From the NCBI GenBank assembly GCA_049521895.1, contig JBEKOJ010000001.1, positions 631,114-695,113 of the forward strand: DNA of 64,000 nt, in the 5' to 3' direction. Shown here one piece after another: positions 797 through 47,747 of the stretch. The notes under the pieces were generated by a model. It did not search any database. It was not told the origin of the DNA and saw only the letters and a list, made by a program, of their open reading frames with translations. The DNA comes from Candidatus Saccharimonadales bacterium. Its GTDB lineage: Bacteria; Patescibacteriota; Saccharimonadia; Saccharimonadales; UBA10212. Position numbers and translations under genes: made by a program. The first letter of the stretch is position 1; the number at the start of each line of letters is the position of its first letter.

Positions 797-3514
797 ATGG
801 TTGAGAGGCGCAAGAAACTAGCTATTATAGATGGAAAGTCAGTATTCTACCGAGGATACTATGCACTTCCAAATTTAAGCACTAAGGAGGGCGTGCCGAC
901 CGGCGGCGTCTATGGTTTTGCCACCATGGCGCTAGAACTTATCAAGCAGCTCAAGCCGGATTATGTTGCCGTAGCTTGGGACAAGCCCAAAACCAACATC
1001 CGCTCGCGCCTCAAGCTTTATCCGCAGTACAAAGCCGGCCGCAAACCGGCACCGCCGGATTTTTATACCCAAATCCCAGTCTTGCACGAACTACTAGAAG
1101 CCTTCGGCTGGCCCCTGTACGAACTGGATGATTACGAAGCCGACGATATCATGGGTACGCTAGCCGAGCAGGCGCGCAAAAAAGATATCGAAACTATGCT
1201 TATCACCTCTGATCTGGACGCTCTGCAGTTAGTCAATGGACACGTGAAGGTCTATGCGCTTAAACGCGGATTTTCTAATATCGAAGAATTCCATACGGAA
1301 AGTTTTGAGGCTAAATACGGCCTTAAGCCCGAGCAATTTTTGGACTTAAAAGCCCTAAAAGGCGATAACTCTGACAATATCCCCGGCGTGCCCGGTATCG
1401 GCGAAAAAACCGCCACCGAGCTGCTGAAGCAATACGACACGCTGGACGGCGTATATAAAAACCTGCCGGCAATTAAGGAAACTTTGCGCAAAAAACTAGA
1501 GGCAGGCAAAAAACTAGCTTACCTCAGTAAAAAACTGGCTACCATCTGGACGGATGCGCCACTGAAACTTAATTTAGCCGAGATGGACGGCACCAAAATC
1601 AACACCGAGCGGCTACGCGAGCTGCTGCAAAAGCTGGAATTCCGTACGCTGCTGGCCAACCTGCCGGCCAACATGCAAACCATCATTCCGCAAGAAGACA
1701 GAGTGGGCGGCGCCAAACTTAAAACCGGCAAAAATATCCTCATCGATTCCAATCAAAAATTGGCTGAGTTTTCCAAGGGTAATCCTTGGAAAAGGGACAT
1801 GGTTTTTGTCCACTCGCGCTCGGCAGGCAAGCACGGCCAGGATCCGCAGGTGTTGCTGCTCAGCGCAGATGACAAAACCGTCTACACCTTAGACCTAACC
1901 CAACTTTCCCCTGAGGCCGTCAAAAAATCTGTAACCTACAACCTACAACCTACAACCTCTCTAATTGGCTACGACATCAAATCTGATATAAAACTCCTCA
2001 AAAATCTGGGCATAGATGCCCAAAATGTTGGGCATGATGTGTTGGTAGGGGCATTCTTGATCAACCCACTAGTCCGCGCACAAAGTCTAACCGATCTGGC
2101 CATCGCCAACCTGGGCTACGAGGGCGCTTCGCTGGAAGATGTGCCAACGGATGATTTCATGGCTCGCGCGCCGGAATTTATTGCCGTTATCCAGCAGCTT
2201 TATAAAGAAGAAGTCAAAGCGCTGGATAAACTACCCAAGATAGCCAAACTGGCCAAAGACATTGAGTGGCCGCTCATCCCCGTGCTGGCCGATATGGAGA
2301 TGGCCGGTATAAAACTAGACACTGGCTACCTGAAGAAAATCTCCAAAGAACTTGATGGCGACATCAGCGACCTTGAGCAAAAAATTTATGGCCACGCCGA
2401 CCACGAGTTCAATATCAGCTCGCCGGCGCAGCTAGCGGACGTGCTTTTCGTTAAGCTCAACCTGCCCAAGGAGGGTATAAAAAAGACCAAAACCGGCTAT
2501 AGCACCGGCGCTGCGGAGCTGGAAAAACTGCGCGGCCTGCACCCGATTATTGATCTGATAACCCAGTACCGCGAGGCTACCAAACTCAAGAATACCTACG
2601 TTGACACACTGCCCGAACAGGTAGATAAAAACTCGCGCTTGCACACAACTTTTAACCTGACTATCGCCCAAACCGGCCGGCTTAGTTCCACCGATCCAAA
2701 TCTGCAGAATATTCCTGTTCGCACCGAGCTGGGCAAACGCATCCGCACGGCCTTTGTGGCAGAGAAGGGCAATGTGCTAATCAGCGCCGATTACTCCCAG
2801 TTTGAGCTGAGATTAGCCGCCGCGCTATCTGGTGATAAGGGCATGCTGGAAGCTTTTAACCGTGATGCCGACATCCATGTGGAAACCGCCGCCCAAATTT
2901 ATGGTATTCCGGCAGGAAAGGTTACTAAAGCCCAACGTAGCTCAGTCAAAGAAGTTAATTTTGGCATTATGTACGGCCTGGGCCCGCACGCCCTGAGTGT
3001 TAGCACCGGAATGAGCTTTGGTGAGGCCAAAAGATTTATAGACAAGTATTTTGAAATCCGCCCCAAGCTCAAACAATATATCGAACTGCAGCGTAAACTG
3101 GCGCTAGAACAGGGGTATGTAGAGACTTTGTTGGGCCGCCGCCGGCCGACGCCAGACGTAAAATCATCCAACTTCGTGGTGCGCGAGGCGGCTTATCGCG
3201 CGGCTGTGAATATGCCGCTGCAGGGTACGGCAGCCGACATTATGAAACTCGCAATGATTGAAGTCGATCAAAAACTACAATCATTCACCGAAACAAGAAA
3301 CAAGAAACAAGAAACAAGTCCAGTTCCCAGTTCCCAGTTCCATATTCCTCGCATCCTGTTACAAATTCACGACTCCTTAATACTGGAGTGTCCCGTGAAG
3401 GAGGCTAAGGAGATTGGAGAAATGGTAAAGGATGCGATGGAAAACGTTTACACCAAACTACCCGTCAAACTCAAAGCCGACATCTCGCACGGCGCTAACT
3501 GGGGAGAGCTTTGA
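797..3514 (+). CDS. polA: DNA polymerase I
   Basis: 905-aa ORF. N-terminal 5'-3' exonuclease motifs (GVPGIGEKTA). C-terminal family A polymerase motifs (DYSQFELRLAA, KEVNFGIMYG, QIHDSLILE). The extended -10 TGGATAAT ends 7 nt before the ATG. Confidence 0.95.
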   Translation: MVERRKKLAIIDGKSVFYRGYYALPNLSTKEGVPTGGVYGFATMALELIKQLKPDYVAVAWDKPKTNIRSRLKLYPQYKAGRKPAPPDFYTQIPVLHELLEAFGWPLYELDDYEADDIMGTLAEQARKKDIETMLITSDLDALQLVNGHVKVYALKRGFSNIEEFHTESFEAKYGLKPEQFLDLKALKGDNSDNIPGVPGIGEKTATELLKQYDTLDGVYKNLPAIKETLRKKLEAGKKLAYLSKKLATIWTDAPLKLNLAEMDGTKINTERLRELLQKLEFRTLLANLPANMQTIIPQEDRVGGAKLKTGKNILIDSNQKLAEFSKGNPWKRDMVFVHSRSAGKHGQDPQVLLLSADDKTVYTLDLTQLSPEAVKKSVTYNLQPTTSLIGYDIKSDIKLLKNLGIDAQNVGHDVLVGAFLINPLVRAQSLTDLAIANLGYEGASLEDVPTDDFMARAPEFIAVIQQLYKEEVKALDKLPKIAKLAKDIEWPLIPVLADMEMAGIKLDTGYLKKISKELDGDISDLEQKIYGHADHEFNISSPAQLADVLFVKLNLPKEGIKKTKTGYSTGAAELEKLRGLHPIIDLITQYREATKLKNTYVDTLPEQVDKNSRLHTTFNLTIAQTGRLSSTDPNLQNIPVRTELGKRIRTAFVAEKGNVLISADYSQFELRLAAALSGDKGMLEAFNRDADIHVETAAQIYGIPAGKVTKAQRSSVKEVNFGIMYGLGPHALSVSTGMSFGEAKRFIDKYFEIRPKLKQYIELQRKLALEQGYVETLLGRRRPTPDVKSSNFVVREAAYRAAVNMPLQGTAADIMKLAMIEVDQKLQSFTETRNKKQETSPVPSSQFHIPRILLQIHDSLILECPVKEAKEIGEMVKDAMENVYTKLPVKLKADISHGANWGEL

Positions 3515-9279: not shown

Positions 9280-9867
9280 ATGAACCGCGCCGTTTTTGGC
9301 TTTTTAGCTTTTATTATCTTGATCATACTGATCGTGGTCTTGATTTTTGGTGGTGGTAAAAAACCGGCAAATAATTCTGGTCCTTCTCTGATGCCGTTGC
9401 CAAACTACTCTACCACTGATGCTACTACCAGCATGACCATAGACGGGCAGGTAAACGGTGACGACATACACCGGGCTATCCGTATTACCGTTAGCCAAAA
9501 CCAGCGCGAGCTGGATATCATCGGCGGCTACAACGGCAACATTATAAGCAGCCAAACTTTTGGCAACAATCAGGCTGCTTATGCCGTCTTTCTGCGGGTT
9601 ATCAACAACTATGGCTTTTTGCAAAAGCTCAAGAACACCAAGGCGCCGGCTGATGAGCGCGGCCAATGTCCGCTAGGCAACCGTTATATCTTTGAGTTGG
9701 ACCAAAACGGCTCTACACTTTCGCGCCTGTGGGCTTCTGATTGCAGTACCACCGATGCCACTTTAGGCGGCAACTCCCAGACTCTACAAGCCCTGTTTGA
9801 GGGGCAAATCACCCAGTACCAAACCCTGACCGAGAACGTCAACCTCGGCTCCGACCAGCTGTTATAG
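9280..9867 (+). CDS. membrane-anchored hypothetical protein
   Basis: 195 aa with a single N-terminal TM helix (FGFLAFIILIILIVVLIF). Confidence 0.6.
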   Translation: MNRAVFGFLAFIILIILIVVLIFGGGKKPANNSGPSLMPLPNYSTTDATTSMTIDGQVNGDDIHRAIRITVSQNQRELDIIGGYNGNIISSQTFGNNQAAYAVFLRVINNYGFLQKLKNTKAPADERGQCPLGNRYIFELDQNGSTLSRLWASDCSTTDATLGGNSQTLQALFEGQITQYQTLTENVNLGSDQLL

Positions 9868-10753: not shown

Positions 10754-11334
10754 TTAAAGCGATTATTTTCGATTGTTTTGGAGTTTTGAGCACTGAAGGC
10801 TTTGGGTCATTTCGAGATAAATACTTGGTGAATGATCCAGATAGGCGCCAGCAGGCAAATAAAACCATGGACGAGCTGAATGCCGGGCGGATACCATACG
10901 ACGAATTTGTTAAAGAACTGGCCAGGTTAGCTAATGTTAGCGAACAAACCGTTGGAGAATACCTAAGCGAGAATAAACCCAACGAGCCCCTCTTTGACTA
11001 TATACGTCAAAACCTCAAGCCCCATTACAAAATTGGCATGTTATCTAATGCAGGGGACAATTGGCTTGAAGAATTATTCGAACAAAGGGACATTAAGTTG
11101 TTTGATGATATCGTACTATCTTACAAATTTGGAATGATTAAGCCTCAGTCAGATATCTATACCCTAGCAGTCAAAAGGCTTGGTGTAGCGTCAAGTGAAT
11201 CCATATTTATTGATGATCAGGAAAAGCACTGCGAAGGGGCACGTGCAGCCGGCATACGAGCCATTTGGTACAAGGATTTTTCGCAGTTTAGGTTTGAGTT
11301 AGAAAAAATTCTAGCCCCCAGCGCGGATAACTAG
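10750..11334 (+). CDS. HAD-superfamily hydrolase (subfamily IA)
   Basis: Motif I IIFDCFGVL, motif II MLSNAG, motif IV FIDDQEKHCEGARAAG. Confidence 0.8.
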   Translation: MIKAIIFDCFGVLSTEGFGSFRDKYLVNDPDRRQQANKTMDELNAGRIPYDEFVKELARLANVSEQTVGEYLSENKPNEPLFDYIRQNLKPHYKIGMLSNAGDNWLEELFEQRDIKLFDDIVLSYKFGMIKPQSDIYTLAVKRLGVASSESIFIDDQEKHCEGARAAGIRAIWYKDFSQFRFELEKILAPSADN

Positions 11335-11550
11335 CCTCTGCTTTAAATCACAGGCTTCAATAAGATTCTGGCGCTCCAGCTGGAGAGTGGCCGCTAGGGC
11401 AGAGCCGCGTACACTAACGATCAACGCTCCGCGCTCCAGCTTAACGGTGCACGGTCGCTTGTAACGCCGCATCACATAGTCTTTAACCACTGTTATTTCA
11501 TCCGGCCGCGCGAAGTTTTTCTTGCTCAAAATATCCTGCAGACTGTCCAT
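11311..11550 (-). CDS. DUF721/DciA-like small protein
   Basis: The ORF track extends to 11622 through a heptad repeat array. I prefer the start at MDSLQDIL. The pattern LERGALIVSVRGSALAATLQLERQNLIEA resembles DUF721. Confidence 0.5.
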   Translation of the reverse strand: MDSLQDILSKKNFARPDEITVVKDYVMRRYKRPCTVKLERGALIVSVRGSALAATLQLERQNLIEACDLKQRLVIRAGG

Positions 11551-11569
11551 TACACACTTCCTACGGGGG

Positions 11570-11657
11570 CAATGGACAAATGGACTAATGAACGAATGGA
11601 CAATACATTGAACATTGAACATTGAACATTGAACATTTTGGACTCCATGAGTCCAAG
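11570..11657. repeat. heptad-periodic AT-rich intergenic repeat block
   Basis: CAATGGACAAATGGACTAATGAACGAATGGACAATA followed by (CATTGAA)x4 at 11605-11632 and the hairpin GGACTCcatGAGTCC. Confidence 0.8.
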
Positions 11658-11669
11658 TATAATGGAGGT

Positions 11670-11692
11670 ATGCCGGAGTTACCAGAAGTAGA
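11670..11692 (+). pseudogene. relic duplicate of the fpg start (MPELPEV) with its own -10 box
   Basis: ATGCCGGAGTTACCAGAAGTAGA, against the real start ATGCCCGAACTCCCAGAGGTTGA at 11883. All differences are synonymous. TATAAT at 11658-11663 ends 6 nt upstream. Confidence 0.7.
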
Positions 11693-11849
11693 CCCGGCAG
11701 TAGACTTTCGAGTCAGCTCGTCGTCAGATGAGATATTTATTCGATGTCAGCGCTTAATTAATTGCCTAGGACTTACAGCCACCGATATTCGTGCTGACGA
11801 GCTGAAACTTACATGCAAAGTCGAATAATCTCGAAAGCTCACTGCCGGG
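11693..11849. mobile_element. 157-bp palindromic MITE-like element (family 1, long form) behind a relic fpg start
   Basis: Termini are CCCGGCAGTAGACTTTCGAGTCAGCTCG ... AGTCGAATAATCTCGAAAGCTCACTGCCGGG. They are identical to the termini of the 18186-18342 copy in the opposite orientation. Flanked by TAGA/TAGA. Confidence 0.8.
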
Positions 11850-11864
11850 TAGAGACAGATGGCT

Positions 11865-11873
11865 TGATACAAT
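11865..11873 (+). promoter_or_regulatory. extended -10 promoter of fpg
   Basis: TGATACAAT ends 9 nt before ATG 11883. Confidence 0.5.
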
Positions 11874-11882
11874 ATAGAAACT

Positions 11883-12818
11883 ATGCCCGAACTCCCAGAG
11901 GTTGAAACTGTCAAACAAGGTCTGAGCAAATTTTTGCCCAAGCTTGTAATTAAAGATGTCTGGCACGACTGGCCAAAGGGTTTCCCAAACGCGCCAGCAG
12001 ACGTAGCACGCTTTATGGTGGGTGCATCAATCACAGATGTTAAACGGCGGGCAAAAGTCTTAATTATTGGCCTCTCGAGCGGCTACAGCTTGGTTATCCA
12101 TCTTAAAATGACCGGCCAGCTGGTTTTTGTCGGCTCCGCCGACAAGCTAAAAGCTAACAGCTCAAAGCTTAAAGCTGAAGAAAAGTTTGGTGGTGGTCAC
12201 CCTACAAGTTCATTAGTCAATGATTTACCGGATAAAAGTACAAGGGTAGTTATTGATTTCACCAACGGAGCCAAACTTTTCTTCAACGACCAGCGTAAAT
12301 TTGGCTGGATGCGCCTGCTACCTTCAGTGGAAGTGCCGGAGATTGATTTTATGAAAACCGTCGGTCCCGAACCGCTGGACGATGATTTTACAGCTGGTAA
12401 ATTCATAGAGTGCATCCGTGGTCGCAAAAACAGCCCTATCAAGGCAGTTTTGCTGGACCAAAAAGTCCTGGCTGGAATCGGTAATATTTACGCCGATGAG
12501 TCGCTATTTGCTGCTAAAATCCATCCGTTGACCAAAGCAAGTGCCATCTCTCGCACCAAGCTTGTAGCGTTGCATAATGATTTGCGGTCCATACTACGGA
12601 CAGCCATAAAAAAAGGCGGCAGTACAGATAGGAATTACGTTAACGCCGAGGGCAAAAAGGGCAGTTACATCCAGTTTGCACAGGTGTTTAGGCGGGAAGA
12701 ACAGCCGTGCCCACGCTGCGGTACCACCATCCAAAAAATAAGAGTGGCGGGTAGAGGAACGCATATATGTCCCCGATGTCAGAAAATCAGGGACCAGAAG
12801 ATAAGGGACAAAAAATGA
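11883..12818 (+). CDS. mutM: formamidopyrimidine-DNA glycosylase
   Basis: N-terminal MPELPEVETV with catalytic Pro2. H2TH region LLDQKVLAGIGNIYADESLF. C-terminal zinc finger CPRCGTTI..CPRCQ. Confidence 0.93.
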   Translation: MPELPEVETVKQGLSKFLPKLVIKDVWHDWPKGFPNAPADVARFMVGASITDVKRRAKVLIIGLSSGYSLVIHLKMTGQLVFVGSADKLKANSSKLKAEEKFGGGHPTSSLVNDLPDKSTRVVIDFTNGAKLFFNDQRKFGWMRLLPSVEVPEIDFMKTVGPEPLDDDFTAGKFIECIRGRKNSPIKAVLLDQKVLAGIGNIYADESLFAAKIHPLTKASAISRTKLVALHNDLRSILRTAIKKGGSTDRNYVNAEGKKGSYIQFAQVFRREEQPCPRCGTTIQKIRVAGRGTHICPRCQKIRDQKIRDKK

Positions 12819-13729
12819 TAGTAACTTTAGCGGGCAATAACAGCTATCTGTTGCGACGGCGGCTGGACGAATTAATCGCCGAGTTTGTTAACAAACAAGG
12901 CGAGCTGGCACTAGAGCGGATTGATGCGACAGAAACCGACTTGCAGGCCATTTTAGATGCCGTACAAAGCCTGCCATTTTTGTCAAAACGCAAAATGGTC
13001 GTGCTGCGCGACCTATCGGCCAATAAGCGTGCAGCGGAGGCCATTGAACAAATAATTAACTCAATTTCGGATACCACTGACGCAGTATTTTACGAGCCCG
13101 TAACAGATAAGCGGACGACTTTTTATAAAATCCTGAAACAAAAAACTAAATTCGAAGAGTTCGATGAACTGGCGCCGCGCGAACTGCCAAAATGGCTGGT
13201 GAATGAGGCCAAGAAAACCGGTGCGCAACTATCGCTTACTGAAGCCAATTACTTGGTGGAGAGACTTGGTCCGAACCAAACTATGTTGGCCAGCGAGCTG
13301 CAAAAATTAATAACTTATATCCCAGAAATTACACGCGAAAATATAGATTTGTTAACTGATCCCACGCCGCAGGGAAGAATTTTTGATCTGCTGGACGCAG
13401 CTTTCGGCGGTGATAAAAAACGTGCCCTAAAACTCTATGAAGAGCAACGTGCGCAGCGCGTGGAGCCGCAAGCAATCTTGGCGATGGTGGCCTGGCAACT
13501 GCAACTATTGGCTTTGGTAAAACACTCTGGCAACCGCCTGGCGGCGGACGTGGCCAGAGACGCAGGCCTTAATCCCTATCCTGTGACAAAGGCTAAAAAC
13601 CTGGCCGCAAAAATCACCGAGTCCGAGCTTAATAAGATGGTGGATGAGGCTCTGGATATAGATTGGCGCAGCAAAACCACGTCAATTGACCTGGACGAAG
13701 CCCTCAAAACTTACATAACGACCCTTTAA
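12815..13729 (+). CDS. holA: DNA polymerase III subunit delta
   Basis: The start at ATG 12815 forms an ATGA overlap with fpg. Length and pattern (LQAILDAVQSLPFLSKRKMVVL, ..LGPNQTMLASELQKL) are typical of HolA. Confidence 0.8.
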   Translation: MIVTLAGNNSYLLRRRLDELIAEFVNKQGELALERIDATETDLQAILDAVQSLPFLSKRKMVVLRDLSANKRAAEAIEQIINSISDTTDAVFYEPVTDKRTTFYKILKQKTKFEEFDELAPRELPKWLVNEAKKTGAQLSLTEANYLVERLGPNQTMLASELQKLITYIPEITRENIDLLTDPTPQGRIFDLLDAAFGGDKKRALKLYEEQRAQRVEPQAILAMVAWQLQLLALVKHSGNRLAADVARDAGLNPYPVTKAKNLAAKITESELNKMVDEALDIDWRSKTTSIDLDEALKTYITTL

Positions 13730-14031
13730 AAGGAAAAACCCGCCGCCAGCTTATGCTGGCGACGGGCGATGGAGTTGTTCCGGATGGTGGCGAGATCCTT
13801 GCGGAGCGCGACCAGGTAGTCGTAGAAGGGAATGAGGACATACCCCACTGCGAACCGGATCTTGCTCGGCGGTCTTCTGCGCCGCCGCTTGTGGGGGCAG
13901 ACCCCCAAGTTCATGCTGCAACCGAAGTGCTCGTCATCGAAGAGATCGAAATGCACGATCGTCCTTTCTGCCGGTGGACAACACCTCTGGGAAAACTCGG
14001 GAATCACCCCGAACCCCAGAGAAGTGAACAT
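13726..14031 (-). CDS. GC-rich orphan ORF (101 aa), possibly a captured foreign gene fragment
   Basis: Two sampled 60-nt lines are about 60-63% GC. There is a strong G/C preference at third codon positions in this frame only. No RBS. An intrinsic terminator follows. The product was not recognised. Confidence 0.35.
   Translation of the reverse strand: MFTSLGFGVIPEFSQRCCPPAERTIVHFDLFDDEHFGCSMNLGVCPHKRRRRRPPSKIRFAVGYVLIPFYDYLVALRKDLATIRNNSIARRQHKLAAGFSF
13729..13766 (-). terminator. intrinsic terminator (minus strand) after the rpsT/GC-rich ORF unit
   Basis: The reverse strand reads CCCGTCGCCAGC-ATAA-GCTGGCGGCGGG followed by TTTTTCCTTTT. Confidence 0.75.
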
Positions 14032-14073
14032 TGTAACATCTTATGCTTAAAAATGCAATAGGTTTCAGGATAA

Positions 14074-14448
14074 TTACTTATGGGTTTTGCCGGCAGATTT
14101 AGCGGGTTTCCCGGCAGTAGATCTTCGCGTGGCTTTGCCAGCATCCGCTTTGGCGGGTGGTCGCGAAGGCTCACTGCCGGGTTTGACACCCGCGGCTTTG
14201 GCTTCTCTGGCGATCCTTGATTTATAGCGTGCCGCTTTATTCTTATGGATCACAGCTTTTTTGGCGGCTATATCTATAGCTTTGACCGCTACTAGGGCGG
14301 TTTTGGCTATCTGGTCAGCCTTTTTGCCATCAACAGCTTTGGCAAAGGCCTTAAGCGCATTACGCAAGTCGCGTTTGGTGCGTGCATTGCGGGCACCAGC
14401 CTTGGCTGTCACCTTCACACGTTTTTTAGCAGATTTAATAATTGGCAC
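14074..14448 (-). CDS. rpsT: 30S ribosomal protein S20 carrying an in-frame 72-bp element insertion in its C-terminal tail
   Basis: MPIIKSAKKR..VIHKNKAARYKSR is canonical S20. The tail ..GVK-PGSEPSRPPAKADAGKATRRSTAG-KPAK.. is encoded by the palindromic element at 14110-14181. Confidence 0.93.
   Translation of the reverse strand: MPIIKSAKKRVKVTAKAGARNARTKRDLRNALKAFAKAVDGKKADQIAKTALVAVKAIDIAAKKAVIHKNKAARYKSRIAREAKAAGVKPGSEPSRPPAKADAGKATRRSTAGKPAKSAGKTHK
14110..14181. mobile_element. 72-bp palindromic MITE-like element (family 1, short form) in frame within rpsT
   Basis: CCCGGCAGTAGATCTTCGCG..CGCGAAGGCTCACTGCCGGG. 67/72 nt identical to the reverse complement of the 51908-51979 copy. Flanked by TTT/TTT. 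Confidence 0.85.
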
Positions 14449-14571
14449 GGTCGTTAACTATAACAGATAGGGAACTCTTTTGTCAAAACCTAAAGTTACC
14501 TCTTGCAACACGATAACGGTTATGTTACTCTGAGCGGCAGAAGTCACCTCACAAAAACTTCAGCCAAAATA

Positions 14572-14670
14572 AAAATGCTCAATGGACAAATGCTCTATGT
14601 TCAATGAATGGCCGATGAGGCGATGTAGCGATGCATTGCTTATTGTTCATTTGTCGCATTTGTCCATTGC
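14572..14670. repeat. heptad-periodic AT-rich intergenic hairpin
   Basis: Perfect 14-bp inverted repeat CAATGGACAAATGC (14580-14593) / GCATTTGTCCATTG (14656-14669). AATG/CATT recurs every 7 nt. CAATGGACAAATG also occurs at 11570. Confidence 0.8.
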
Positions 14671-14688
14671 CTCCGAAAGAGGTACCTA

Positions 14689-16269
14689 ATGGACGCTCCG
14701 GCCAAACAACAAGTAGTAGAGCGCGTTAAACAGGCCACCAATATTTTGGTGACTATTAGTACTGATCCGTCGGTGGACCAGCTAGCGGCTTGTATTGGTT
14801 TAACGCTATTGCTTAACCGCATGGAAAAACACGCCACAGCGGTGTTTTCTGGCCAAGTGCCATCCACGCTGGAGTTTTTGCAACCCGAAAAAACCATCGA
14901 GACCAATACCGACTCCTTGCGTGATTTTATAATTAGCCTGGACAAGAACAAGGCCGACAAGTTGCGCTATAAGGTCGAAGACCAAGTAGTGCGCATCTTT
15001 ATAACACCTTATAAAACGTCATTGAGTGAAAAAGACCTGGTTTTCAGCCAGGGTGACATTAACGTGGAAGTGGTCATGGCGCTGGGGATCAAAAACCGCA
15101 CGCATATAGATGCTGCCATTACCGCACACGGCCGTATTTTACACGACGCCACCGTAATTAACTTAATTGCTGGACCAGATAACCTGCCGCCGCTGGGCCA
15201 AATCAATTGGCAGGAGCCAGGCGCCAGCAGCTTATCGGAAATGCTGGTCAGTATCTCTGAAGCTTTTGGTCCTGGGTTGATAGATAACCAGATAGCTACG
15301 GCCTTTTTGACCGGTATCGTGGCTGAGACCCAGCGCTTTAGTAATACCAGGACTTCTCCCAAGACTATGACTATGGCCGCGCAACTAATGGCTGCCGGCG
15401 CTAACCAGCAGTTGATCGTCAGCAAACTGGAGCCGCCGCAAATGCCGCCGGCTGCCGGAAAACCGGCGCCAAAGCCCCAACCACCCAAACCGCCCATGCA
15501 ACCCAAAGACAAAGGCACCCTGAGCGTTTCGCATGATAAAGACAAAGGTGATAGCTCCGAAGTCGAAATCGCACCAGGCGAAATCCATATCGATGAAAAG
15601 GGCAACTTAACAACCACCAATCAGCTTGAGGACGAAGTTGAGCAACTACGAAAGCTGCGTCAACAGGAGGCATCGGTGCCTGAATCCGTTCCTTTGCCTT
15701 CACCACTGGCTCCGCTGGCAACTGCCGTACCCCCAGAAGCTCCCAAGCCACACGAGCTATTAGACCCCGTAGACCACAAACCGGCTTTTAACTCGCCATT
15801 TACTGCCGATACCCAAGCCGAGTGGATCGATCCTTATAACAGCGTGACAATTGACCCGCTGAGCGGCAATAGCGGCTCGGCGCCGGGCTCGCAAACAGAT
15901 GGTTTTATTGAACCCTCCAAAACAATACAACCCCCGGCTGAGCCGCCAAAAACACCGCTAACGGCGGCTGCTCTAGCAAACCCCGTGGCCGTTGGATCCG
16001 CGCCTGGTAACACTATGCCGGCGGTGGATAATGCCCGCAGCGCGGTAGAAAGCGCTATCGCCTCCAGCCCGTTTGACCCCGCTTTCGCGCCGCCTGTCAA
16101 TTCACTCAATGCTCAAACAATGGGCCCGGAATTGCATGGCTCCAGGAGCGCGAATATTACACCGAGTCTGCAGCTGCCTACTAATGGTGCTCCAGCGCCG
16201 GCTGCCGATATCGCCCCGCCAGCGCCGCCAACGGTACCGCCGCCGCTAGTACCAATAAACGGCCAATAA
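14689..16269 (+). CDS. DHH-family (NrnA-like) protein with degenerate catalytic motifs and a proline-rich C-terminal half
   Basis: The N-terminal 250 aa follow the NrnA layout, but the DHH/DxD positions are substituted (ILVTISTDPSVDQLAA). The C-terminal roughly 270 aa are low-complexity and P/A-rich. Confidence 0.5.
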   Translation: MDAPAKQQVVERVKQATNILVTISTDPSVDQLAACIGLTLLLNRMEKHATAVFSGQVPSTLEFLQPEKTIETNTDSLRDFIISLDKNKADKLRYKVEDQVVRIFITPYKTSLSEKDLVFSQGDINVEVVMALGIKNRTHIDAAITAHGRILHDATVINLIAGPDNLPPLGQINWQEPGASSLSEMLVSISEAFGPGLIDNQIATAFLTGIVAETQRFSNTRTSPKTMTMAAQLMAAGANQQLIVSKLEPPQMPPAAGKPAPKPQPPKPPMQPKDKGTLSVSHDKDKGDSSEVEIAPGEIHIDEKGNLTTTNQLEDEVEQLRKLRQQEASVPESVPLPSPLAPLATAVPPEAPKPHELLDPVDHKPAFNSPFTADTQAEWIDPYNSVTIDPLSGNSGSAPGSQTDGFIEPSKTIQPPAEPPKTPLTAAALANPVAVGSAPGNTMPAVDNARSAVESAIASSPFDPAFAPPVNSLNAQTMGPELHGSRSANITPSLQLPTNGAPAPAADIAPPAPPTVPPPLVPINGQ

Positions 16270-16285
16270 CTGGTCTAAACCAAAT

Positions 16286-16405
16286 TTGACATCTTACAAT
16301 TCACACTTAACATTTATTTAGCATTTGTCATTTCACAGGTGTTAATGCTACTTGAAAGATGTAAAATAAATGCTCAATGATAAATGAAAAGTGCTAAATG
16401 CTTAA
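16286..16405. repeat. heptad-periodic AT-rich intergenic hairpin
   Basis: The left arm is ..ACATTTATTTAGCATTTGTCATTTCACA. The right arm is AGATGTAAAATAAATGCTCAATGATAAATGAAAAGTGCTAAATG. It shares CATTTGTCATTTCACA with 18606 and AAATGCTCAATG with 14572. Confidence 0.8.
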
Positions 16406-17165
16406 GATGGACGGATTTTTATTAGTTGATAAGCCAGCTGGCATGACATCTCACGATGTTGTCGCAAAAGTGCGAAGCATTTTGCGACAAGTCCAGAGCT
16501 CAGAGCTAAGAGTCCACAGCAAAGACCAAGAACTCTCAGCTCTTGGTTCTCGGCTCTCAGCTCGCGCACCAAAGGTGCGCGTGGGCCATACTGGCACTCT
16601 GGATCCGGCGGCCACCGGCCTAATGATTTTAGTTTTAGGCAAATACACCAAGCGGGCGGGAGAATTCAGCAAGCTGGATAAGACTTATGAGGCGGAGATA
16701 ATTCTTGGAAAAGTTAGTTCAACTGGTGATAGTGAGGGCACGATTAGTAAAACGCAAAATGTAAAAAGCAAAAAGCCAACCGAAAAGGAAATTCAAAAAG
16801 TTTTGGGCACATTTTTGGGTGAGATCCAGCAGACGCCGCCAGCTTTCAGCGCCATAAAAGTAGACGGCCAGCGGGCTTATAGGCTGGCGCGGCAGGGGAA
16901 AGAAGTGAAACTCCAGCCGCGCAAGGTTACAGTGCACAGGTTACAGGTTACAGAATATGAATATCCGACCCTTAAATGCACAACGGAGGTTAGTAGCGGC
17001 ACATATATCCGTTCGCTGGCGACTGATATCGGCGCCAAACTCGGCACCGGCGGCTATTTATCCTCCCTCCGCCGCACCCAAGTCGGCAGTTTTCATCTGG
17101 AAAATGCCCTCAAAATCGACGACCTAACTCCTTCGAACATCGAAACCCGCCTTCGCCCCGCTTAA
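16398..17165 (+). CDS. truB: tRNA pseudouridine(55) synthase
   Basis: LLVDKPAGMTSHDVV..VGHTGTLDPAATG (catalytic Asp). It carries an insertion of about 26 aa (QSSELRVHSKDQELSALGSRLSARA) between these motifs. Confidence 0.9.
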   Translation: MLKMDGFLLVDKPAGMTSHDVVAKVRSILRQVQSSELRVHSKDQELSALGSRLSARAPKVRVGHTGTLDPAATGLMILVLGKYTKRAGEFSKLDKTYEAEIILGKVSSTGDSEGTISKTQNVKSKKPTEKEIQKVLGTFLGEIQQTPPAFSAIKVDGQRAYRLARQGKEVKLQPRKVTVHRLQVTEYEYPTLKCTTEVSSGTYIRSLATDIGAKLGTGGYLSSLRRTQVGSFHLENALKIDDLTPSNIETRLRPA

Positions 17166-17297
17166 AAGCCTGAGCGGAGCAGTCGGTAATCCCGCATATT
17201 TTCAGCTCTTTTCGCAATCTGATTGCTAGACTGCTCAAAACCAGGAAAATAAGCGGGACAGGTCAGATTATGGAGCATCAAGATTTTAGTGCTGGGG
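17156..17297. repeat. palindromic repeat family 2, long copy (overlaps the truB stop)
   Basis: CCCCGCTTAAAAGCCTGAGCGGAG ... GGAGCATCAAGATTTTAGTGCTGGGG. The core AATCTGATTGCTAGACTGCTC is shared with the copy at 35533. Confidence 0.65.
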
Positions 17298-17347
17298 TTG
17301 CAAAAATAGCCAAAGTGTGGTAATATTGGTAATATTAAAGAATTAAA

Positions 17348-18121
17348 ATGACTAAAACCGAATTGCCATATTTTGAACGACAACTTCCTATTCGGCCAGA
17401 AGGGCTAGTTAAAAACTACAAAGATGCAGTAAAAGAAAAAGATCGAGTTATTAAAATCGAAGATTTACTAAGGAGAGGCACTTGGCGTGGTGCGCTCGGT
17501 CGAGTGTTTCTTGGCTGGGGGAACGCTAATAGATATAACAATGCCATGGCAGGTCCCGACAGAGAAAGGTCTATTGCTAGGTCCCATGTTAATGCGTCTC
17601 TGGACCTTTATAAAGAACAAGCGAAAAATGAGGCTCGCGCAAAGGGCAAAAATATTGAATTGCTCGAGGATATGCCCCGTAGAAAACGTAAGTATATTGA
17701 ATATCAGCATATGCGCAACGAAGTGAGGGATTTATTGGCTCCACTTATGGACGAATATAATAAGGTTGCTGCTGAGAGTGATCCTTCGGATCATGTATAT
17801 TTCGAGTTCAGTCGTGAAGGTAATAATGAGCTTTCAGAGTTCCATATGTACACCATGCCTTTTACTGATAGCGATGATGGCAGACCCAGTTTTGAGGGCC
17901 GGTTTATAGAGAAGTGGCCACAGAACAAACCTCATAATGACCATGGCAGTTTCCATTACGCCAACTTCGTCCTTAGCGGTCTTGATAATTGGGAGCGTGA
18001 AGAACATGAATTCCGGGCTGCCGAGCGCGTAGTTGAAGCCCTAAAAGATGGGACTATTCATTTTGACGGTGTAGTTAAGCAATCTGACTTAACCCCCAAA
18101 ACTAAAGAAGTAAATCAATAA
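17348..18121 (+). CDS. hypothetical protein (AT-rich accessory ORF)
   Basis: 257-aa ORF with no recognisable motif. Confidence 0.6.
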   Translation: MTKTELPYFERQLPIRPEGLVKNYKDAVKEKDRVIKIEDLLRRGTWRGALGRVFLGWGNANRYNNAMAGPDRERSIARSHVNASLDLYKEQAKNEARAKGKNIELLEDMPRRKRKYIEYQHMRNEVRDLLAPLMDEYNKVAAESDPSDHVYFEFSREGNNELSEFHMYTMPFTDSDDGRPSFEGRFIEKWPQNKPHNDHGSFHYANFVLSGLDNWEREEHEFRAAERVVEALKDGTIHFDGVVKQSDLTPKTKEVNQ

Positions 18122-18144
18122 ACATTGCTAAATCACCTCTGATT

Positions 18145-18153
18145 TGCTATAAT
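18145..18153 (+). promoter_or_regulatory. extended -10 promoter of rpsO
   Basis: TTGCTA-N17-TATAAT with a TGC extension. ATG 18165 is 11 nt downstream. Confidence 0.6.
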
Positions 18154-18164
18154 TGGCCGCAAGA

Positions 18165-18185
18165 ATGATCACCAGTGAGAAGAAG
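18165..18185 (+). pseudogene. ancestral rpsO start (MITSEKK), now separated from the gene body by the element
   Basis: ATG ATC ACC AGT GAG AAG AAG lies directly after the extended -10 TGCTATAAT (18145-18153). This frame runs into TGA at 18294-18296 inside the element. Confidence 0.7.
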
Positions 18186-18342
18186 CCCGGCAGTGAGCTT
18201 TCGAGATTATTCGACTCATCCATGAGGCTTAGCTCGCTGGTGCACCAATCAATAGCAGTAAATCATACGGTCAAGGATGATGTTTATGTCGAATGATGTA
18301 GTTACAGGAGAAGGCGAGCTGACTCGAAAGTCTACTGCCGGG
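18186..18342. mobile_element. 157-bp palindromic MITE-like element (family 1, long form) splitting rpsO
   Basis: CCCGGCAGTGAGCTTTCGAGATTATTCGACT ... CGAGCTGACTCGAAAGTCTACTGCCGGG. Flanked by AAG/AAG. Same length as the 11693 copy, but the 98-bp core is diverged. Confidence 0.85.
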
Positions 18343-18591
18343 AAGGCCAGGATTATATCCGATCTTCAGGCTCACAAAACCGATACCGGTTCGTCCGCAG
18401 TGCAGGTCGGTATTATGACCGAGCGGATTGCCGAGTTGACGGCGCATATGAAGACGCACAAACACGATTTCGCCGCCCGCCGGTCATTGCTGCAACTGGT
18501 CGGCAAACGCAAACGGCTGCTCAAATATATCGCCGCCCAGAGCGGGGATGAGTACCTGGCTTTGATTAAAAAGCTCGGTATTAGACGCTAG
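18277..18591 (+). CDS. rpsO: 30S ribosomal protein S15; its N-terminus is encoded inside an inserted element
   Basis: ..KARIISDLQAHKTDTGSSAVQVGIMTERIAELTAHMKTHKHDFAARRSLL..LGIRR is canonical S15. The probable start is ATG 18286, 8 nt after AAGGA. The ancestral start at 18165 is separated by the 157-bp element. Confidence 0.9.
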   Translation: MMFMSNDVVTGEGELTRKSTAGKARIISDLQAHKTDTGSSAVQVGIMTERIAELTAHMKTHKHDFAARRSLLQLVGKRKRLLKYIAAQSGDEYLALIKKLGIRR

Positions 18592-18596
18592 CACCT

Positions 18597-18714
18597 TAAT
18601 TTTACATTTGTCATTTCACACTTATCATTTATTTATCAGGTGTCATTTCATCAATGATGAATGGTAAATGTCTAAATAAATGTGAAATGTAATCTGTAAA
18701 ATGTTAAATAATCG
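18597..18714. repeat. heptad-periodic AT-rich intergenic hairpin
   Basis: TACATTTGTCATTTCACACTTATCATTTATTTATC ... GGTAAATGTCTAAATAAATGTGAAATGTAATCTGTAAAATG. The left arm has xxCATTT heptads and the right arm has AAATGxx heptads. Confidence 0.8.
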
Positions 18715-18961
18715 TGGGTGATAGAGCACAGCTTTTCGCGAAAAAAGCGAATGGTTGGACCTTGTCACCCAAAGAAAGGCAAACAACAGATATGGCAGAG
18801 ACCAGTAGGCATAACAGTAACTTTTTTCGTATACGAGCGATTCGCTTGGGCGATGCATTGCAATTACCAGGCGAACAAGGTGTATCCAATGGATACATTG
18901 CGGAGCGGTGTGATTGCAATGCGCGTCCAAAGAATTGCGTAGTAGAAAAGGAGTTGCTGGT

Positions 18962-21097
18962 ATGACTACTATCAATCCGTTTGGCAAAAAAATAATTAAA
19001 GTCAGTACTGACTTTTGTGGCCAGGAGCTCAGCTTGGAAGTAGGGCGTGTAGGCTTTAGGACCAGCGCTTCGGTGGTTGCCCGTTATGGCGATACGGTGG
19101 TGCTAGGCACAGCCATGGTGAGCCCGGAAACTGTTCAGGGGCTGGATTATTTCCCGCTGAGCATTGATTACGAAGAAAAATTTTATGCCGCCGGTAAGAT
19201 TAGCGGCAGCCGGTTTATTAAGCGCGAGGGCCGCCCATCTGATGAAGCGATACTGATTGGCCGTTTGATTGACCGCCCGATACGGCCTCTATGGCCCAAG
19301 GGCTATAGGCACGAAGTACAGGGTGTGGCCACTGTTTTGAGCTTGGACCCGGCATTTAGGCCTGATTCCATAGCAATGATCGTTATGTCCGCCGCCTTTA
19401 TGCTAACCGGCGTACCATTTGAGGGCCCGGTAGCTGGTATACGGGTTGGTTTGGTGAATGGCAAACCCAAGGCTTTTGCCAGCGTAGAAGAATTGGAGCA
19501 AGGCGAACTAGACCTGGTGGTAGCCGGCACCAAAGACGGCGTGATGATGGTAGAAGCTGGCGCTCGCGGGGTCAGCGAGGACGCCGTAGTTGAAGCTATG
19601 GAATACGCCCATAAGGCTATTCAGCCAGCAATTGAACTGCAGAATGAGCTGGTAAAAAAGGTGGGAATAACACCTCAGGAATATAAGCTTATATTGCCCG
19701 ACGAAGATATCCAGAAGCAGGTCAATAAGTGGGTAGAAGGCAAAATGGGCAAAGCCCTGCGTGCCCCGTATCCCGAGCGTAATGATTTAGTCTCCGACCT
19801 GCGCCACAAAATGCACGAGCATTTCCGTAGCCAGCTTGGAGAAGAATATGACAAAGAAGTTAAGGCGGAATGGGATGAGGCCTTTGACATGGCCATCCAC
19901 AAGGACGTGCGGGATGGCATCTTAGATGAAAATATCCGGCCCGATGGCCGCAAATTAACGGAGATACGGCCGCTAAGTAGCGAGGTAGCCTTGCTGCCAA
20001 GGGCCCATGGTTCCAGCCTGTTTACCCGTGGTGTTACCCAGGCATTAAATATTGTTACGCTAGCGCCGCTTTCTTATGCACAAATGGTAGACACCATGGA
20101 ACGTGAAGGTGAACGCCGCTACATGCACCACTACAATGCTCCGGGTTACACCGTTGGCGAGGTGCGCCGTCTGGGAGCCCCAGGCCGGCGTGAAATTGGC
20201 CACGGTTATCTGGCAGAAAAGGCGCTGAGTACCGTTTTACCGACCGAAGCCGATTTTCCTTACACCATCCGCTCGGTTACTGAAATTATGAGCCAAAACG
20301 GCAGCACCTCGATGGCGGCAACTTGCTCCTCGTGCATGGCGTTAATGGACGCCGGTGTACCGCTAAGCGCGCCGGTCAGCGGCATTGCTATGGGCTTGAT
20401 GACCGACGGCACAAAAAATGTTATTTTGAGCGACATTGCCGATGCTGAAGATTTTGCCGGCGATATGGACTTTAAAGTAGCCGGTACTGCCAAAGGTGTT
20501 ACAGCCCTGCAGATGGATATGAAAGTCCACGGATTGTCAGTAGCAGTACTTAAAAAAGCCTTAGAGCAGAGCAGGACCGGCCGGGCGGAGATCCTGCAGC
20601 ACATGCTGTCGGTAATTCCTGAACCTAGAGCCGAGATGAGCCCGTACGCACCACGCGTTGAGGCCATTCAAATTAACCCAGAAAAGATCCGCGAGGTTAT
20701 TGGCAAGGGCGGCGAAACTATCAATAAAATAATTGCTGAAACCGGCGCTGAAATTGATATTAAAGACGACGGCACGGTGATGGTCGCCAGCCCTGATAAA
20801 ACCAGCATTGATGCCGCCATCAAATATATCCGCACGCTGACAGCCGAACCGGAAGTTGGTAAAATATATGAGAACTGCCGGGTCGTAAGCGTTTTAGACT
20901 TTGGCGCCTTTGTGGAAATTATGCCGGGCAAAGAGGGCCTGGTGCACGTCAGCGAGATGAAAGAAGAGCGGGTGGAAAAACCAAGCGATGTGGTCAAAGA
21001 GGGCGATCAAGTAACCGTTAAGCTGATAGCGATTGATGACCGTGGGCGTCTGCAGCTATCCATGAAAGCCGCACAGCGGGAGCTTGATAAGAAATAA
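18962..21097 (+). CDS. pnp: polynucleotide phosphorylase
   Basis: Start at ATG 18962 after AAAAGGAG. Two RNase PH domains, then KH (GKGGETINKI) and S1 (GKIYENCRVVSVLDFGAFVEI). Confidence 0.95.
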   Translation: MTTINPFGKKIIKVSTDFCGQELSLEVGRVGFRTSASVVARYGDTVVLGTAMVSPETVQGLDYFPLSIDYEEKFYAAGKISGSRFIKREGRPSDEAILIGRLIDRPIRPLWPKGYRHEVQGVATVLSLDPAFRPDSIAMIVMSAAFMLTGVPFEGPVAGIRVGLVNGKPKAFASVEELEQGELDLVVAGTKDGVMMVEAGARGVSEDAVVEAMEYAHKAIQPAIELQNELVKKVGITPQEYKLILPDEDIQKQVNKWVEGKMGKALRAPYPERNDLVSDLRHKMHEHFRSQLGEEYDKEVKAEWDEAFDMAIHKDVRDGILDENIRPDGRKLTEIRPLSSEVALLPRAHGSSLFTRGVTQALNIVTLAPLSYAQMVDTMEREGERRYMHHYNAPGYTVGEVRRLGAPGRREIGHGYLAEKALSTVLPTEADFPYTIRSVTEIMSQNGSTSMAATCSSCMALMDAGVPLSAPVSGIAMGLMTDGTKNVILSDIADAEDFAGDMDFKVAGTAKGVTALQMDMKVHGLSVAVLKKALEQSRTGRAEILQHMLSVIPEPRAEMSPYAPRVEAIQINPEKIREVIGKGGETINKIIAETGAEIDIKDDGTVMVASPDKTSIDAAIKYIRTLTAEPEVGKIYENCRVVSVLDFGAFVEIMPGKEGLVHVSEMKEERVEKPSDVVKEGDQVTVKLIAIDDRGRLQLSMKAAQRELDKK

Positions 21098-24144: not shown

Positions 24145-24223
24145 GAGGTCCGTCCTTGGAAAAGGATAGATAAAACTTTGTGGTTTTAATTTCTTAACTG
24201 TACCTTTTCCAAGGACGGACCTC
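24145..24223. repeat. perfect 21-bp inverted repeat with 37-nt spacer, downstream of rnj
   Basis: GAGGTCCGTCCTTGGAAAAGG (24145-24165) and CCTTTTCCAAGGACGGACCTC (24203-24223). Confidence 0.85.
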
Positions 24224-41498: not shown

Positions 41499-41499
41499 T

Positions 41500-41534
41500 G
41501 CTCAATGTTCAAGTGCCAATATTCAATGATTTTG
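41500..41534. repeat. short heptad tract
   Basis: GCTCAAT GTTCAAG TGCCAAT ATTCAAT GATTTTG, immediately after the stop of the 40443-41498 gene. Confidence 0.6.
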
Positions 41535-44414: not shown

Positions 44415-44461
44415 GGGGAGGGGACAGATACGTATCCATGAATCCCATCAGACCCCAAAAA

Positions 44462-44580
44462 ACAATGGATTTCATGTTTAACAGTTTGTATTTAACATTT
44501 ATTGATCATTCTTTACTTAGTCATTGGAAATTAGCAATTGCTAAATTAATGGCAAATAGTAAACGGCAAATAGTAAACGC
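44462..44580. repeat. heptad-periodic AT-rich intergenic hairpin
   Basis: Centre palindrome TTAGCAATTGCTAA. 14-mer GGCAAATAGTAAAC x2 (44551-44578). TTTAACA heptads on the left arm. Confidence 0.75.
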
Positions 44581-44603
44581 CGCCGGAGGTGGCCGGCTGT
44601 GAA

Positions 44604-47598: not shown

Positions 47599-47617
47599 GT
47601 CGTGATTGCATCACTCC

Positions 47618-47727: not shown

Positions 47728-47747
47728 GCATCGGGAGGAGTGTCCTG

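Follow-up and report, generated by a model that had tools for sequence, protein, structure and literature searches.

What are the AT-rich blocks with a seven-nucleotide step that lie between genes in this Candidatus Saccharimonadales genome, and what has put them there? The stretch analysed here (64,000 nt, hereafter the window) carries such blocks, built on a CATT(T) or (A)AATG core that recurs every 7 nt, and one of them lies between rpsO and pnp. An earlier note had picked them out and had offered slippage, an RNA-level function or a REP-like mobile repeat as their cause. We find that these elements have two reverse-complementary arms, in each of which a 7-nt unit is repeated imperfectly in tandem. 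We propose, with moderate confidence, that the blocks are dispersed palindromic repeats of the ERIC, Correia or RPE kind whose arms grow by 7-nt slippage, and that they are primarily selfish or neutral, with regulatory effects being secondary. Elements of the window are denoted below by W and a number, and related loci, each of about 20 kb, by L and a number.

The period itself is unambiguous. When the window was scanned for self-match at periods 2-15, 131 windows of 56 nt reached the threshold of at least 60% at period 7, one at period 3 and none at any other period. A scan with 35-nt windows found 18 period-7 blocks as against 0-3 in 20 first-order Markov simulations, so that the excess over simulated sequence on which the earlier note had staked its claim is present within the window. 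CATT recurred at a spacing of 7 six times (0-2 times at the other spacings from 4 to 11) and AATG 13 times (0-5 times). The copies are thus head-to-tail and over-represented relative to other periods, as in generic heptanucleotide simple-sequence repeats. The bulk autocorrelation of the 6.9 kb of pooled non-coding DNA was modest (lag-7 z = 2.8, lag-14 z = 2.4, lag-21 z = 4.1), because the signal is strongly local and not diffuse. This modest bulk signal and the AT-rich composition might be taken to indicate chance low-complexity sequence or an assembly artefact, but the number of blocks, their identity in independent JGI and ENA assemblies and their homologues in other species refute this explanation, to which we give practically no weight. 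It is true, as had been remarked, that 7 nt does not match the helical repeat of DNA, but this means little since 3 x 7 = 21 is approximately two turns.

All seven sites described earlier were read directly and the blocks are present, the one at 41500 being only an imperfect 14-mer x2. Every block lies in a spacer, as had been stated, and the flanking genes, which were assigned by Pfam and from the gene calls of near-identical contigs, are mostly co-directional. The spacers occupied are HAD-fpg, rpsT(-)/orf14689, orf14689-truB, rpsO-pnp, the one after orf40374, that between an 87-aa gene and pilB, and pilT-pilC. Typically the block starts 0-18 nt past the upstream stop codon and ends a few bases ahead of the next Shine-Dalgarno sequence. 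The sub-blocks said to be shared between loci proved to be exact (CAATGGACAAATG at 11570 and 14580, CATTTGTCATTTCACA at 16322 and 18605, AAATGCTCAATG at 14573 and 16368), and Tandem Repeats Finder (TRF) recovered the perfect arrays: ACATTGA x4.7 at 11605, AATGCCA x3.4 at 47672, and 14-mers x2.4 at 47617 and x2.1 at 44551. These perfect 7-mer and 14-mer runs support the suggestion that the arrays were generated by slippage. The long imperfect hairpin ascribed to the blocks is strong at 14572, 18597 and 11570 and moderate at 16286, but weak at 44462 and 47618 and absent at 41500.

Two classes can be distinguished by the order of the arms. Class I has the architecture 5'-(nCATTTn)x~8, a loop often with CAGGTGT, (nAAATGn)x~8-3', in total about 117 nt, and is represented in the window by four copies (16284, 18597, 44466 and 47616) that are homologous over their full length. 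Their left arms align in register at 71-79% identity, and a repeat finder matched 92 nt of the 18601 copy to the 47620 copy at 73%. In an alignment of eight members, four from the window and four from other species, pairwise identity was 0.59-0.79, while the heptamer-block shuffles that served as the null for identity gave a mean of 0.56 and a maximum of 0.63. Furthermore, the covariance model that had been proposed as a check was built from five class I members (model R1), and finds copies in other species and exactly these four copies in the window, with scores of 103-112 bits for the + strand as against 58-66 for the - strand (16284, 103 against 59.7 bits; 18597, 105.9; 44466, 102.8; 47616, 111.6). 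The difference in score between the strands means that the class I copies are not perfectly symmetric and share one orientation, which in four of four window copies is that of the flanking genes; GC skew did not separate transcription from replication orientation. With four full-length homologous copies, copies in other species, and both filled and empty sites in relatives, the idea of a REP-like dispersed family is supported. Judging by their 59-79% identity the class I copies are old.

The hairpin was examined on the eight-member alignment. RNAalifold picked a slipped register because the arms are periodic and shifted registers also pair; the in-register structure was imposed instead and pairs were counted on that. 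Since slipped registers also pair, the stems would tolerate changes of one unit. The in-register hairpin has 36 pairs in helices of 4-6 bp, split by 2x2 internal loops where the two variable positions of every heptamer lie. In this register 87.8% of cells are paired; with the 3' partner shifted by 1-3 columns the figure is 31-46%. Changes on both sides were counted in eight pairs, as against 2.5 +/- 1.3 in shuffles, and 0 of 500 shuffles reached eight; an example is UUUCACA...UGUGAAA in W18597, which is UUUCGCA...UGCGAAA in L016. The complementarity of the arms is thus preserved through compensatory changes, and therefore the hairpin itself is the thing that is maintained. Of the individual copies, 18597 folds well by comparison with dinucleotide shuffles (-30.6 kcal/mol, z -5.2; 44-nt arms 73% complementary) and 16284 less so (-26.7 kcal/mol, z -2.8); the folds of 44466, in which three C-G pairs have become U-A, and of 47616 are weak (z -1.6 and -1.3, respectively).

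Conservation of this kind could also mean that the arrays are target sites of a protein that recognises CATTT/AAATG with a 7-nt register on DNA or RNA, whether a nucleoid, partition or RNA-chaperone-like protein. The CATTT/AAATG core is far better conserved than the two variable positions per unit, and the class I consensus, including the loop CAGGTGT / CCAGGT, persists across species at sites that are not orthologous (as in L014 19470 set beside W18597 and W47616). The conserved positions are, however, exactly the base-pairing ones, so that the hairpin alone explains the conservation of the core. In addition, the 118 heptamer arrays found in 1.47 Mb of related genomes use 93 distinct units, which no single recognition sequence fits, and no candidate protein was identified. 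We consider binding-site arrays improbable, and the earlier proposal of one periodic RNA-binding protein is weakened as a general explanation and now unlikely.

Class II has the opposite arm order, with the AATG arm first; its two window copies (11570 and 14572) have no R1 match. The 11570 element is followed by a separate small hairpin, TTGGACTCCATGAGTCCAAG, at 11638-11657, and has a fold z of -4.0 with this hairpin included. It has the same units in the same order as an element between pilT and pilC in L209, at 85% identity against a block-shuffle maximum of 83%. The + strand of the 14572 element folds to -38.4 kcal/mol (z -5.3) with 7 G-U pairs and its - strand to -27.8 kcal/mol; when the two strands were compared element by element, the outcome was inconsistent. 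The 41500 site has no hairpin (fold z +0.6) and no R1 match.

Given that the hairpins stand just past stop codons, they might be intrinsic (Rho-independent) terminators. The class I stems have a GC content of 0.24-0.30, are about 40-50 bp long and are interrupted every 7 nt; being AU-rich and without a U-tract after them, they are not canonical terminators. A terminator scan called no whole element, its sole hit within a block (14618-14641) being the apical stem of the 14572 element, although in the same region, downstream of rpsT, the scan did detect a canonical terminator that is GC-rich and has a T-run. Moreover, the elements lie inside operons, directly ahead of the next ribosome-binding site. 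A terminator role is therefore very improbable. Pairs of the form TTGACA/TTTACA ... TAACAT/TATCAT occur inside the 16286 and 18601 elements, but a promoter scan gave 14 promoter-like sites in the region compared with 10.7 +/- 3.1 in shuffles, and with no excess we make no promoter claim.

Table 1. Positions of the intergenic elements and in-gene arrays in the window
Feature	Coordinates	Strand	Details
Class I element	16284-16405	+	Fills the orf14689-truB spacer; 3' arm reaches the truB start
Class I element	18597-18714	+	Starts 6 nt past the rpsO stop, upstream of the conserved pnp leader
Class I element	44466-44580	+	Upstream of pilB; perfect 14-mer x2.1 in the 3' arm
Class I element	47616-47729	+	Between pilT and pilC; perfect (CAATTCACATTTAA)x2.4 and (AATGCCA)x3.4 arrays
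Class II element	11570-11640	.	HAD-fpg spacer; (AATGGACn)x4 then perfect (ACATTGA)x4.7
Class II element	14572-14670	.	Divergent rpsT/orf14689 spacer; ends about 6 nt before the orf14689 ribosome-binding site
Weak member	41497-41534	.	Imperfect 14-mer x2.1 directly past the orf40374 stop; TRF score 46
In-frame hairpin, truB	16490-16566	+	CAGAGCT.../...CTCTCAG; 23 residues added to the loop
In-frame hairpin, pilD	49716-49795	+	TAGTTGA... / AAACTAC x5, between two Cys pairs; TRF; fold z -2.5
In-frame array, pilD	50160-50205	+	AGCTCnn, self-complementary via its AGCT core; TRF; fold z -2.2
In-frame perfect arrays, polA	3270-3350	+	(GAAACAA)x4.1 and (CCAGTTC)x3.1; TRF
In-frame perfect array, polA	1933-1958	+	(AACCTAC)x3.7; TRF 100% match; translation
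In-frame array, fpg	12128-12189	+	AAGCTnA; TRF

The history of the elements can be followed in relatives. All PNPase relatives in a collection of species-representative genomes were metagenome-assembled genomes of Saccharibacteria / Saccharimonadales, the best with 86% amino-acid identity, and gene order was compared at 80 loci, most of which keep the order fpg-holA-rpsT-orf14689-truB-rpsO-pnp. A metagenome scan with a 16-mer of the pnp leader, in which 80 of the 119 matching stretches were checked, yielded five real rpsO-pnp spacers and added L102, L122 and L140; a search for PilT homologues provided five further pil loci (L209-L213). Outside the window R1 matched L016, L014 (twice), L003, L026 and L140. 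The 18597 copy has an orthologue at L016 9797-9915, 79% identical and with a compensatory A>G / U>C change, and the 16284 copy has one at the same junction in L014 (8256-8382). Other class I copies are at non-orthologous places (L014 19470 and L003 6350).

The same junctions are found filled, refilled and empty. At the 3' site of rpsO five different states occur among the relatives: the CATTT/AAATG hairpin (window, L016 and L026, with its outer ends conserved between the window and L016); a hairpin of CTAG/TTAG heptamers (...AATCTAGAATCTAAATTCTAG) in L001, L004, L012, L032, L041, L043, L122 and L140; an expanded GATTTTA/AATCTAG version in L003; a TTCGAAA version in L007; and an empty site in L005, L013 and L102. 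The orf14689-truB junction holds hairpins of other units in L003, L004 and L005 (AACAGTn/TTGTTnT, TTCATTG and GTTGTAG) and a short plain spacer in most other loci, and at the rpsT/orf14689 junction L003 has a class I-like element where the window has the class II element 14572. The pilT-pilC spacer, class I in the window, measures 3-4 nt in L210, L211 and L213; in L209, whose PilT is 92% identical, the left flank, GTCGTGAYTRCRTCACTCC, is the same and a class II element comes after it, and L212 has a TTTACAG/CTGTnTA hairpin there. Upstream of pilB the spacer measures 293 nt in the window but 21-24 nt in L209, L210, L211 and L213. The CATTT/AAATG families are thus old, common to several species, and present or absent by junction, which is the distribution expected of a dispersed and at some time mobile repeat.

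Just downstream of the rpsO-pnp hairpin, at 18715-18771, is a conserved pnp leader consisting of TGGGTGATAGAGCACAG, a short GC hairpin and TTGGACCTTGTCACCCA. This motif is common to many Saccharimonadales (L001, L003, L004, L005, L007, L016 and others), has no Rfam match, and may be the counterpart of the E. coli pnp leader that serves autoregulation by RNase III and PNPase. Between the window and L003, conservation of the leader continues for another ~200 nt ahead of the pnp start. In one of the two strain lineages described below (B; L087 and L089) a 45-nt GC-rich hairpin (CCATCGGCCGCACAAATTTCG...GAAATTTCGGCGG) lies in this leader at 18768; it is not in lineage A, and a homologue of it occupies this position in L003 and L005. 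Upstream of rpsO, orf17348 (17348-18121) encodes 257 aa between truB and rpsO, has no Pfam match, and gave no tblastn match in the 80 loci; having no match in relatives, it represents a lineage-specific insertion in an otherwise conserved gene order.

Near-identical contigs fall into two strain lineages, A and B; five assemblies covered 13 kb of the comparison and six covered ~21 kb. Across 20.8 kb of the truB region 125 substitution sites and 6 indels separate the lineages, and the four elements of that region contain none of them; since only ~2.6 would be expected there, this absence alone is not significant. The 13 kb of the pil region contain two substitutions and one complete replacement of a hairpin in pilD. 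In lineage B the pilD cassette is an AGAGCTn.../...CTCTCAG hairpin, +24 nt, between identical flanks, so that the PilD loop (window 49708-49803 compared with L083 / L084) is longer by 22 residues in lineage A and by 30 in lineage B, the added sequences being unrelated. The single-nucleotide differences between the window and L087 / L089 are clustered (9599-9856, 11877-12755, 14155-14534 and 15179-15688), reaching ~6% within fpg and separated by long stretches with none. This mosaic pattern means that imports by homologous recombination are common.

These strains bear on the possibility that the blocks are phase-variable simple-sequence repeats whose copy number switches or tunes the pilus genes, as the 7-bp promoter repeats of the Haemophilus HMW adhesins reportedly tune expression. 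Perfect 7-mer runs of 3-5 copies do adjoin pilB and pilC and occur inside pilD, and one pilD segment is variable between strains. The pilD difference is a complete replacement, however, and not a change in copy number; most arrays adjoin housekeeping genes (rpsO, truB, fpg and polA); and every intergenic block is identical, with 0 copy-number differences, in the assembly consensus of both lineages. The suggestion that heptamer copy number tunes pilC expression is therefore not borne out, and phase variation is hardly credible as the explanation of the family.

The elements could instead be host-selected cis-regulatory RNA hairpins, acting as 3'-end barriers to PNPase or RNase J, as RNase III sites or as partial attenuators. 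They would then exist to set differential expression within operons, and the periodicity would be a side effect of stem elongation. The placement of most copies, 0-18 nt past a stop codon and ending just ahead of the next Shine-Dalgarno sequence, would suit such a role, as would the orthologous junctions kept across distant species with compensatory changes, the one orientation relative to transcription in all copies, and the presence of some hairpin at the rpsO 3' position in most relatives. In E. coli, too, the 3' position of rpsO carries a terminator hairpin. The sense strand of the 14572 element, with its 7 G-U pairs, also folds 10 kcal/mol better than the other strand. Yet in close relatives (PilT 88-92% identical) these junctions hold no element (3-24 nt), the rpsO site is empty in three loci, units have been swapped freely between lineages, and sister arrays lie inside open reading frames (ORFs), where such a role is implausible. 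Moreover, a G-U bias is absent overall and two of the four class I copies fold weakly. We regard host selection of this kind as possible, though on the unlikely side.

Several observations also weigh against our own proposal of dispersed, primarily selfish or neutral repeats. No transposase domain was found among the 20 ORFs scanned in the window, and classes I and II show no signature of terminal repeats plus target duplication, so that mobility is inferred from the distribution alone. No recent near-identical class I or II copies were found. That copies are retained at orthologous sites in species whose PNPases are 78% identical, and that their orientation is uniform (about six independent copies, p ~0.03), fits a host-selected function better than junk. 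The 44466 and 47616 copies fold no better than shuffled sequence, and the test for a sense-strand bias (15 G-U against 10 A-C mismatches, p = 0.42) does not demonstrate structure at the RNA level. In the assembly consensus there is no heptamer copy-number variant between the lineages, which means that slippage is slow or that the assemblies hide the variation. Finally, the exchange of the pilD cassette could be an ordinary short recombination import.

Heptamer arrays of other units, which the earlier note missed, also occur inside genes. Near-perfect or perfect period-7 arrays, usually as inverted pairs, lie in frame in polA, fpg, truB and pilD (Table 1), where additional residues appear in Pfam alignments. 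Most compared loci have a TruB loop of 21-26 aa after VRSILRQ (21 in the closest relatives of the window), and the loop is 30-44 aa in the window, L003, L007, L014, L016 and L071, which have six heptamer hairpin inserts of different units with fold z of -3.2 to -4.7, that of L014 being weaker (-1.4). The inserts of the window and L014 are homologous, and a CAGAGC>CAAAGC change between them is apparently matched by GCUCUC>GCUUUC (read by eye, not tabulated). The PilD loop is short in L213 and L210. In polA, the arrays at 3270 pair only on the antisense strand (-1.3 kcal/mol on + against -22.5 on -), and the match to DNA_pol_A is 15 residues longer than the profile. The N-terminal domain of Fpg is 26 residues longer than its profile, and the AAGCTnA unit family found there recurs in L003 and L014. 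A GGTTACA array also lies over a conserved, non-inserted part of TruB (KVTVHRLQVTE) in three species (window 16924-16953, L003 8555-8606, L014 8700-8799), which indicates that heptamer periodicity can coexist with conserved coding.

The 93 units among 118 arrays argue for a generic process with a 7-nt step and not for one recognised motif. The loci richest in heptamers are L003, L007, L014 and L071, followed by the window and L016, and most relatives have almost none. The rich lineages are scattered on a PNPase neighbour-joining tree, although a single-gene tree is too weak to tell gains from losses. The CATTT/AAATG blocks are the AT-rich, mostly stop-rich subset of a lineage-restricted, genome-wide heptamer phenomenon. 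They have stop codons in most reading frames, consistent with their confinement to spacers.

A gene of the PF05635 family (23S rRNA intervening-sequence (IVS) protein), encoding 120 aa, was observed between fpg and holA at L014 3560-3928 (E = 3e-17) and L071 3881-4240 (E = 6.5e-17), each bracketed by inverted heptamer arrays (CAATTTA x3-4 ... TGTGAAT x2-3) reminiscent of rRNA IVS stems. These two loci are among the four most heptamer-rich, and there is no copy in the window or the other loci. It is conceivable that in some Saccharimonadales an active mechanism writes or exchanges heptamer inverted-array cassettes at defined places, namely stop-start junctions and protein loops (truB after VRSILRQ, and pilD), and that this is a new and very small mobile or templated element and not passive slippage. 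The pointers are the different cassettes at the same site in different lineages, the pilD swap in near-identical strains, and the scatter of rich genomes on the PNPase tree. The PF05635 (Avd-like) genes flanked by inverted arrays could be connected with such a mechanism. We think this reading rather unlikely.

How do these elements compare with known repeats? Heptameric repeats are over-represented in some bacteria, and slippage related to the polymerase footprint has been hypothesised (PMC4692102). Intergenic GGGAATC / GGGGA(C/T)T arrays, occasionally inverted, occur in Xanthomonas and Nostoc (PMC4692102), and TAACTGA arrays in Beggiatoaceae (PMC4679880). Like these and the STRR repeats of heterocystous cyanobacteria, the arrays described here have a 7-nt unit in 2-6 imperfect copies, are mostly intergenic near gene ends, sometimes form inverted pairs and have a patchy, lineage-restricted spread, the cause in both cases being unexplained and slippage having been proposed. 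Unlike them, the units here are AT-rich and of 93 kinds, with neither a dominant motif nor G-runs. Arrays commonly stand in inverted pairs here (about two-thirds of folded blocks) but only occasionally there, and the paired arrays form homologous dispersed elements, with others in frame in conserved genes, in a candidate phyla radiation (CPR) host. The cyanobacterial STRR units are CCCCAGT, TTGGTCA and CAACAGT. None of the units of these named families (STRR, GGGAATC, TAACTGA) is among the 40 commonest units of the 93-unit census, and a search for TAACTGA x2 with up to 2 mismatches gave 0 matches.

The likeness to dispersed palindromes is closer. As in ERIC, Correia (CREE) and BOX-RUP elements and MITEs (miniature transposable elements with inverted repeats), the unlinked copies are homologous, each being an imperfect palindrome over its whole length of ~100-150 nt, intergenic, co-transcribed in operons, predicted to fold in mRNA, and present or absent at orthologous junctions (PMC10969869, PMC2649163, PMC3184786). 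They differ in that their arms are 7-nt periodic, that the copies are old, and that no terminal inverted repeat plus duplication or cognate transposase was seen; classes I and II have filled and empty sites as MITEs do, but neither a target duplication nor discrete termini could be defined. Correia elements undergo RNase III processing, ERIC elements affect mRNA decay, and Rickettsia RPE are in-frame insertions (PMC10969869; see also PMC2649163). The in-gene arrays in truB, pilD, fpg and polA, but not the seven intergenic blocks, resemble RPE in being in-frame hairpins absent from orthologues, in unrelated housekeeping genes and tolerated loops of a reduced genome (PMC10969869). Unlike the ~150-bp conserved-sequence families of RPE, they are inserts of 27-70 nt that share sites but have different units, and one is swapped between strains. 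The elements may also work as REP, BIME and REPIN do, as extragenic palindromes in operons able to stabilise upstream mRNA. Membership of the REP family was rejected, the elements being 71-122 nt long with a GC content of 0.24-0.41, as opposed to a 20-40 bp GC-rich stem with a GTAG/CGTC tag, and no such tag or link to a RAYT was seen. At the gathering threshold Rfam returned two tRNAs only from the whole window, and at E<=1 nothing from 11300-19100. A literature search for heptamer or palindromic repeats in Saccharibacteria found nothing. The elements join two known types of bacterial repeat, neither of which appears to have been reported from this phylum; the new combination is that of heptamer arrays as the paired arms of a dispersed palindrome, with in-frame relatives, in a CPR genome.

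Other repeats stand near these elements. A MITE-like insertion of ~110 nt lies at the pilB start codon (44599-44707), with terminal inverted repeats CCCGTTAGAaTC ... GAgGTCTAACGGG and a direct repeat, G/ATGAAT, that looks like a target-site duplication; it also occurs upstream of pilB in L212, is absent from L209, L210, L211 and L213, and has a remnant at 44437-44456. A second, GC-rich inverted-repeat family has arms of 20-21 nt (CCCGGCAGTGAGCTTTCGAG / CTCGAAAGCTCACTGCCGGG) that are 32 or 117 nt apart. Copies are at 11692-11850, 14110-14181, 18186-18342 and 51908-51979 and in the rpsT-orf14689 spacer of L016; those at 14110 and 18323 overlap the annotated rpsT 3' end and rpsO 5' end, and 14098-14195 (-) resembles 51896-51993 (+). 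A perfect 21-bp inverted repeat with a 37-nt loop (24145-24223; GAGGTCCGTCCTTGGAAAAGG ... CCTTTTCCAAGGACGGACCTC) lies directly 3' of the RNase J gene. Finally, a 32-nt direct repeat with 91% identity (ATT.CGGAGCATCAAGATTTTAGTGC.GGGGT; 17267-17298 and 58372-58403) is upstream of orf17348 and of the ORF starting at 58480, and may be a shared promoter or leader motif.

Returning to the proposal of dispersed palindromic repeats, whole elements are shown as a pattern to appear, disappear and be exchanged at operon stop-to-start junctions and in surface loops. Replication slippage would lengthen and remodel the arms 7 or 14 nt at a time, which would be the known heptamer bias of bacterial repeats, and a streamlined genome may tolerate the elements at few places other than such junctions and loops. 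Co-transcribed in operons, they would give the mRNA long AU-rich stems with 4-6 bp helices and 2x2 loops every 7 nt, and these may, as in ERIC, Correia and REP, act in processing or in stabilising 3' ends and so uncouple adjacent cistrons. An effect on mRNA processing and stability is, by this analysis, probable but unproven.

Saccharibacterial genomes rank among the smallest and most streamlined in bacteria, and yet this one spends a large share of its scarce non-coding DNA, together with loops of polA, truB, fpg and pilD, on heptamer hairpins. That certain bacteria contain 7-nt repeats in excess has been known since 2007, without an explanation. The main value of the elements is as a comparative system for this bias: since array-rich and array-free genomes are closely related, a comparison of gene content could identify the factor responsible, be it a polymerase, repair or mobile-element function. 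The elements also mislead gene callers to false upstream starts; at the mechanically called ORF starts 47712 (pilC), 16398 (truB), 14448 (rpsT) and 44693 (pilB) these arise from ATGs within AATG arrays and from ORFs extended through repeat elements, and callers differ between assemblies (pilC, 407 or 419 aa). For the organism, they mark operon junctions where expression may be uncoupled. The epibiotic lifestyle of this organism depends on type IV pili, and it is in the pilus-processing enzyme PilD that strain-specific peptide cassettes arise.

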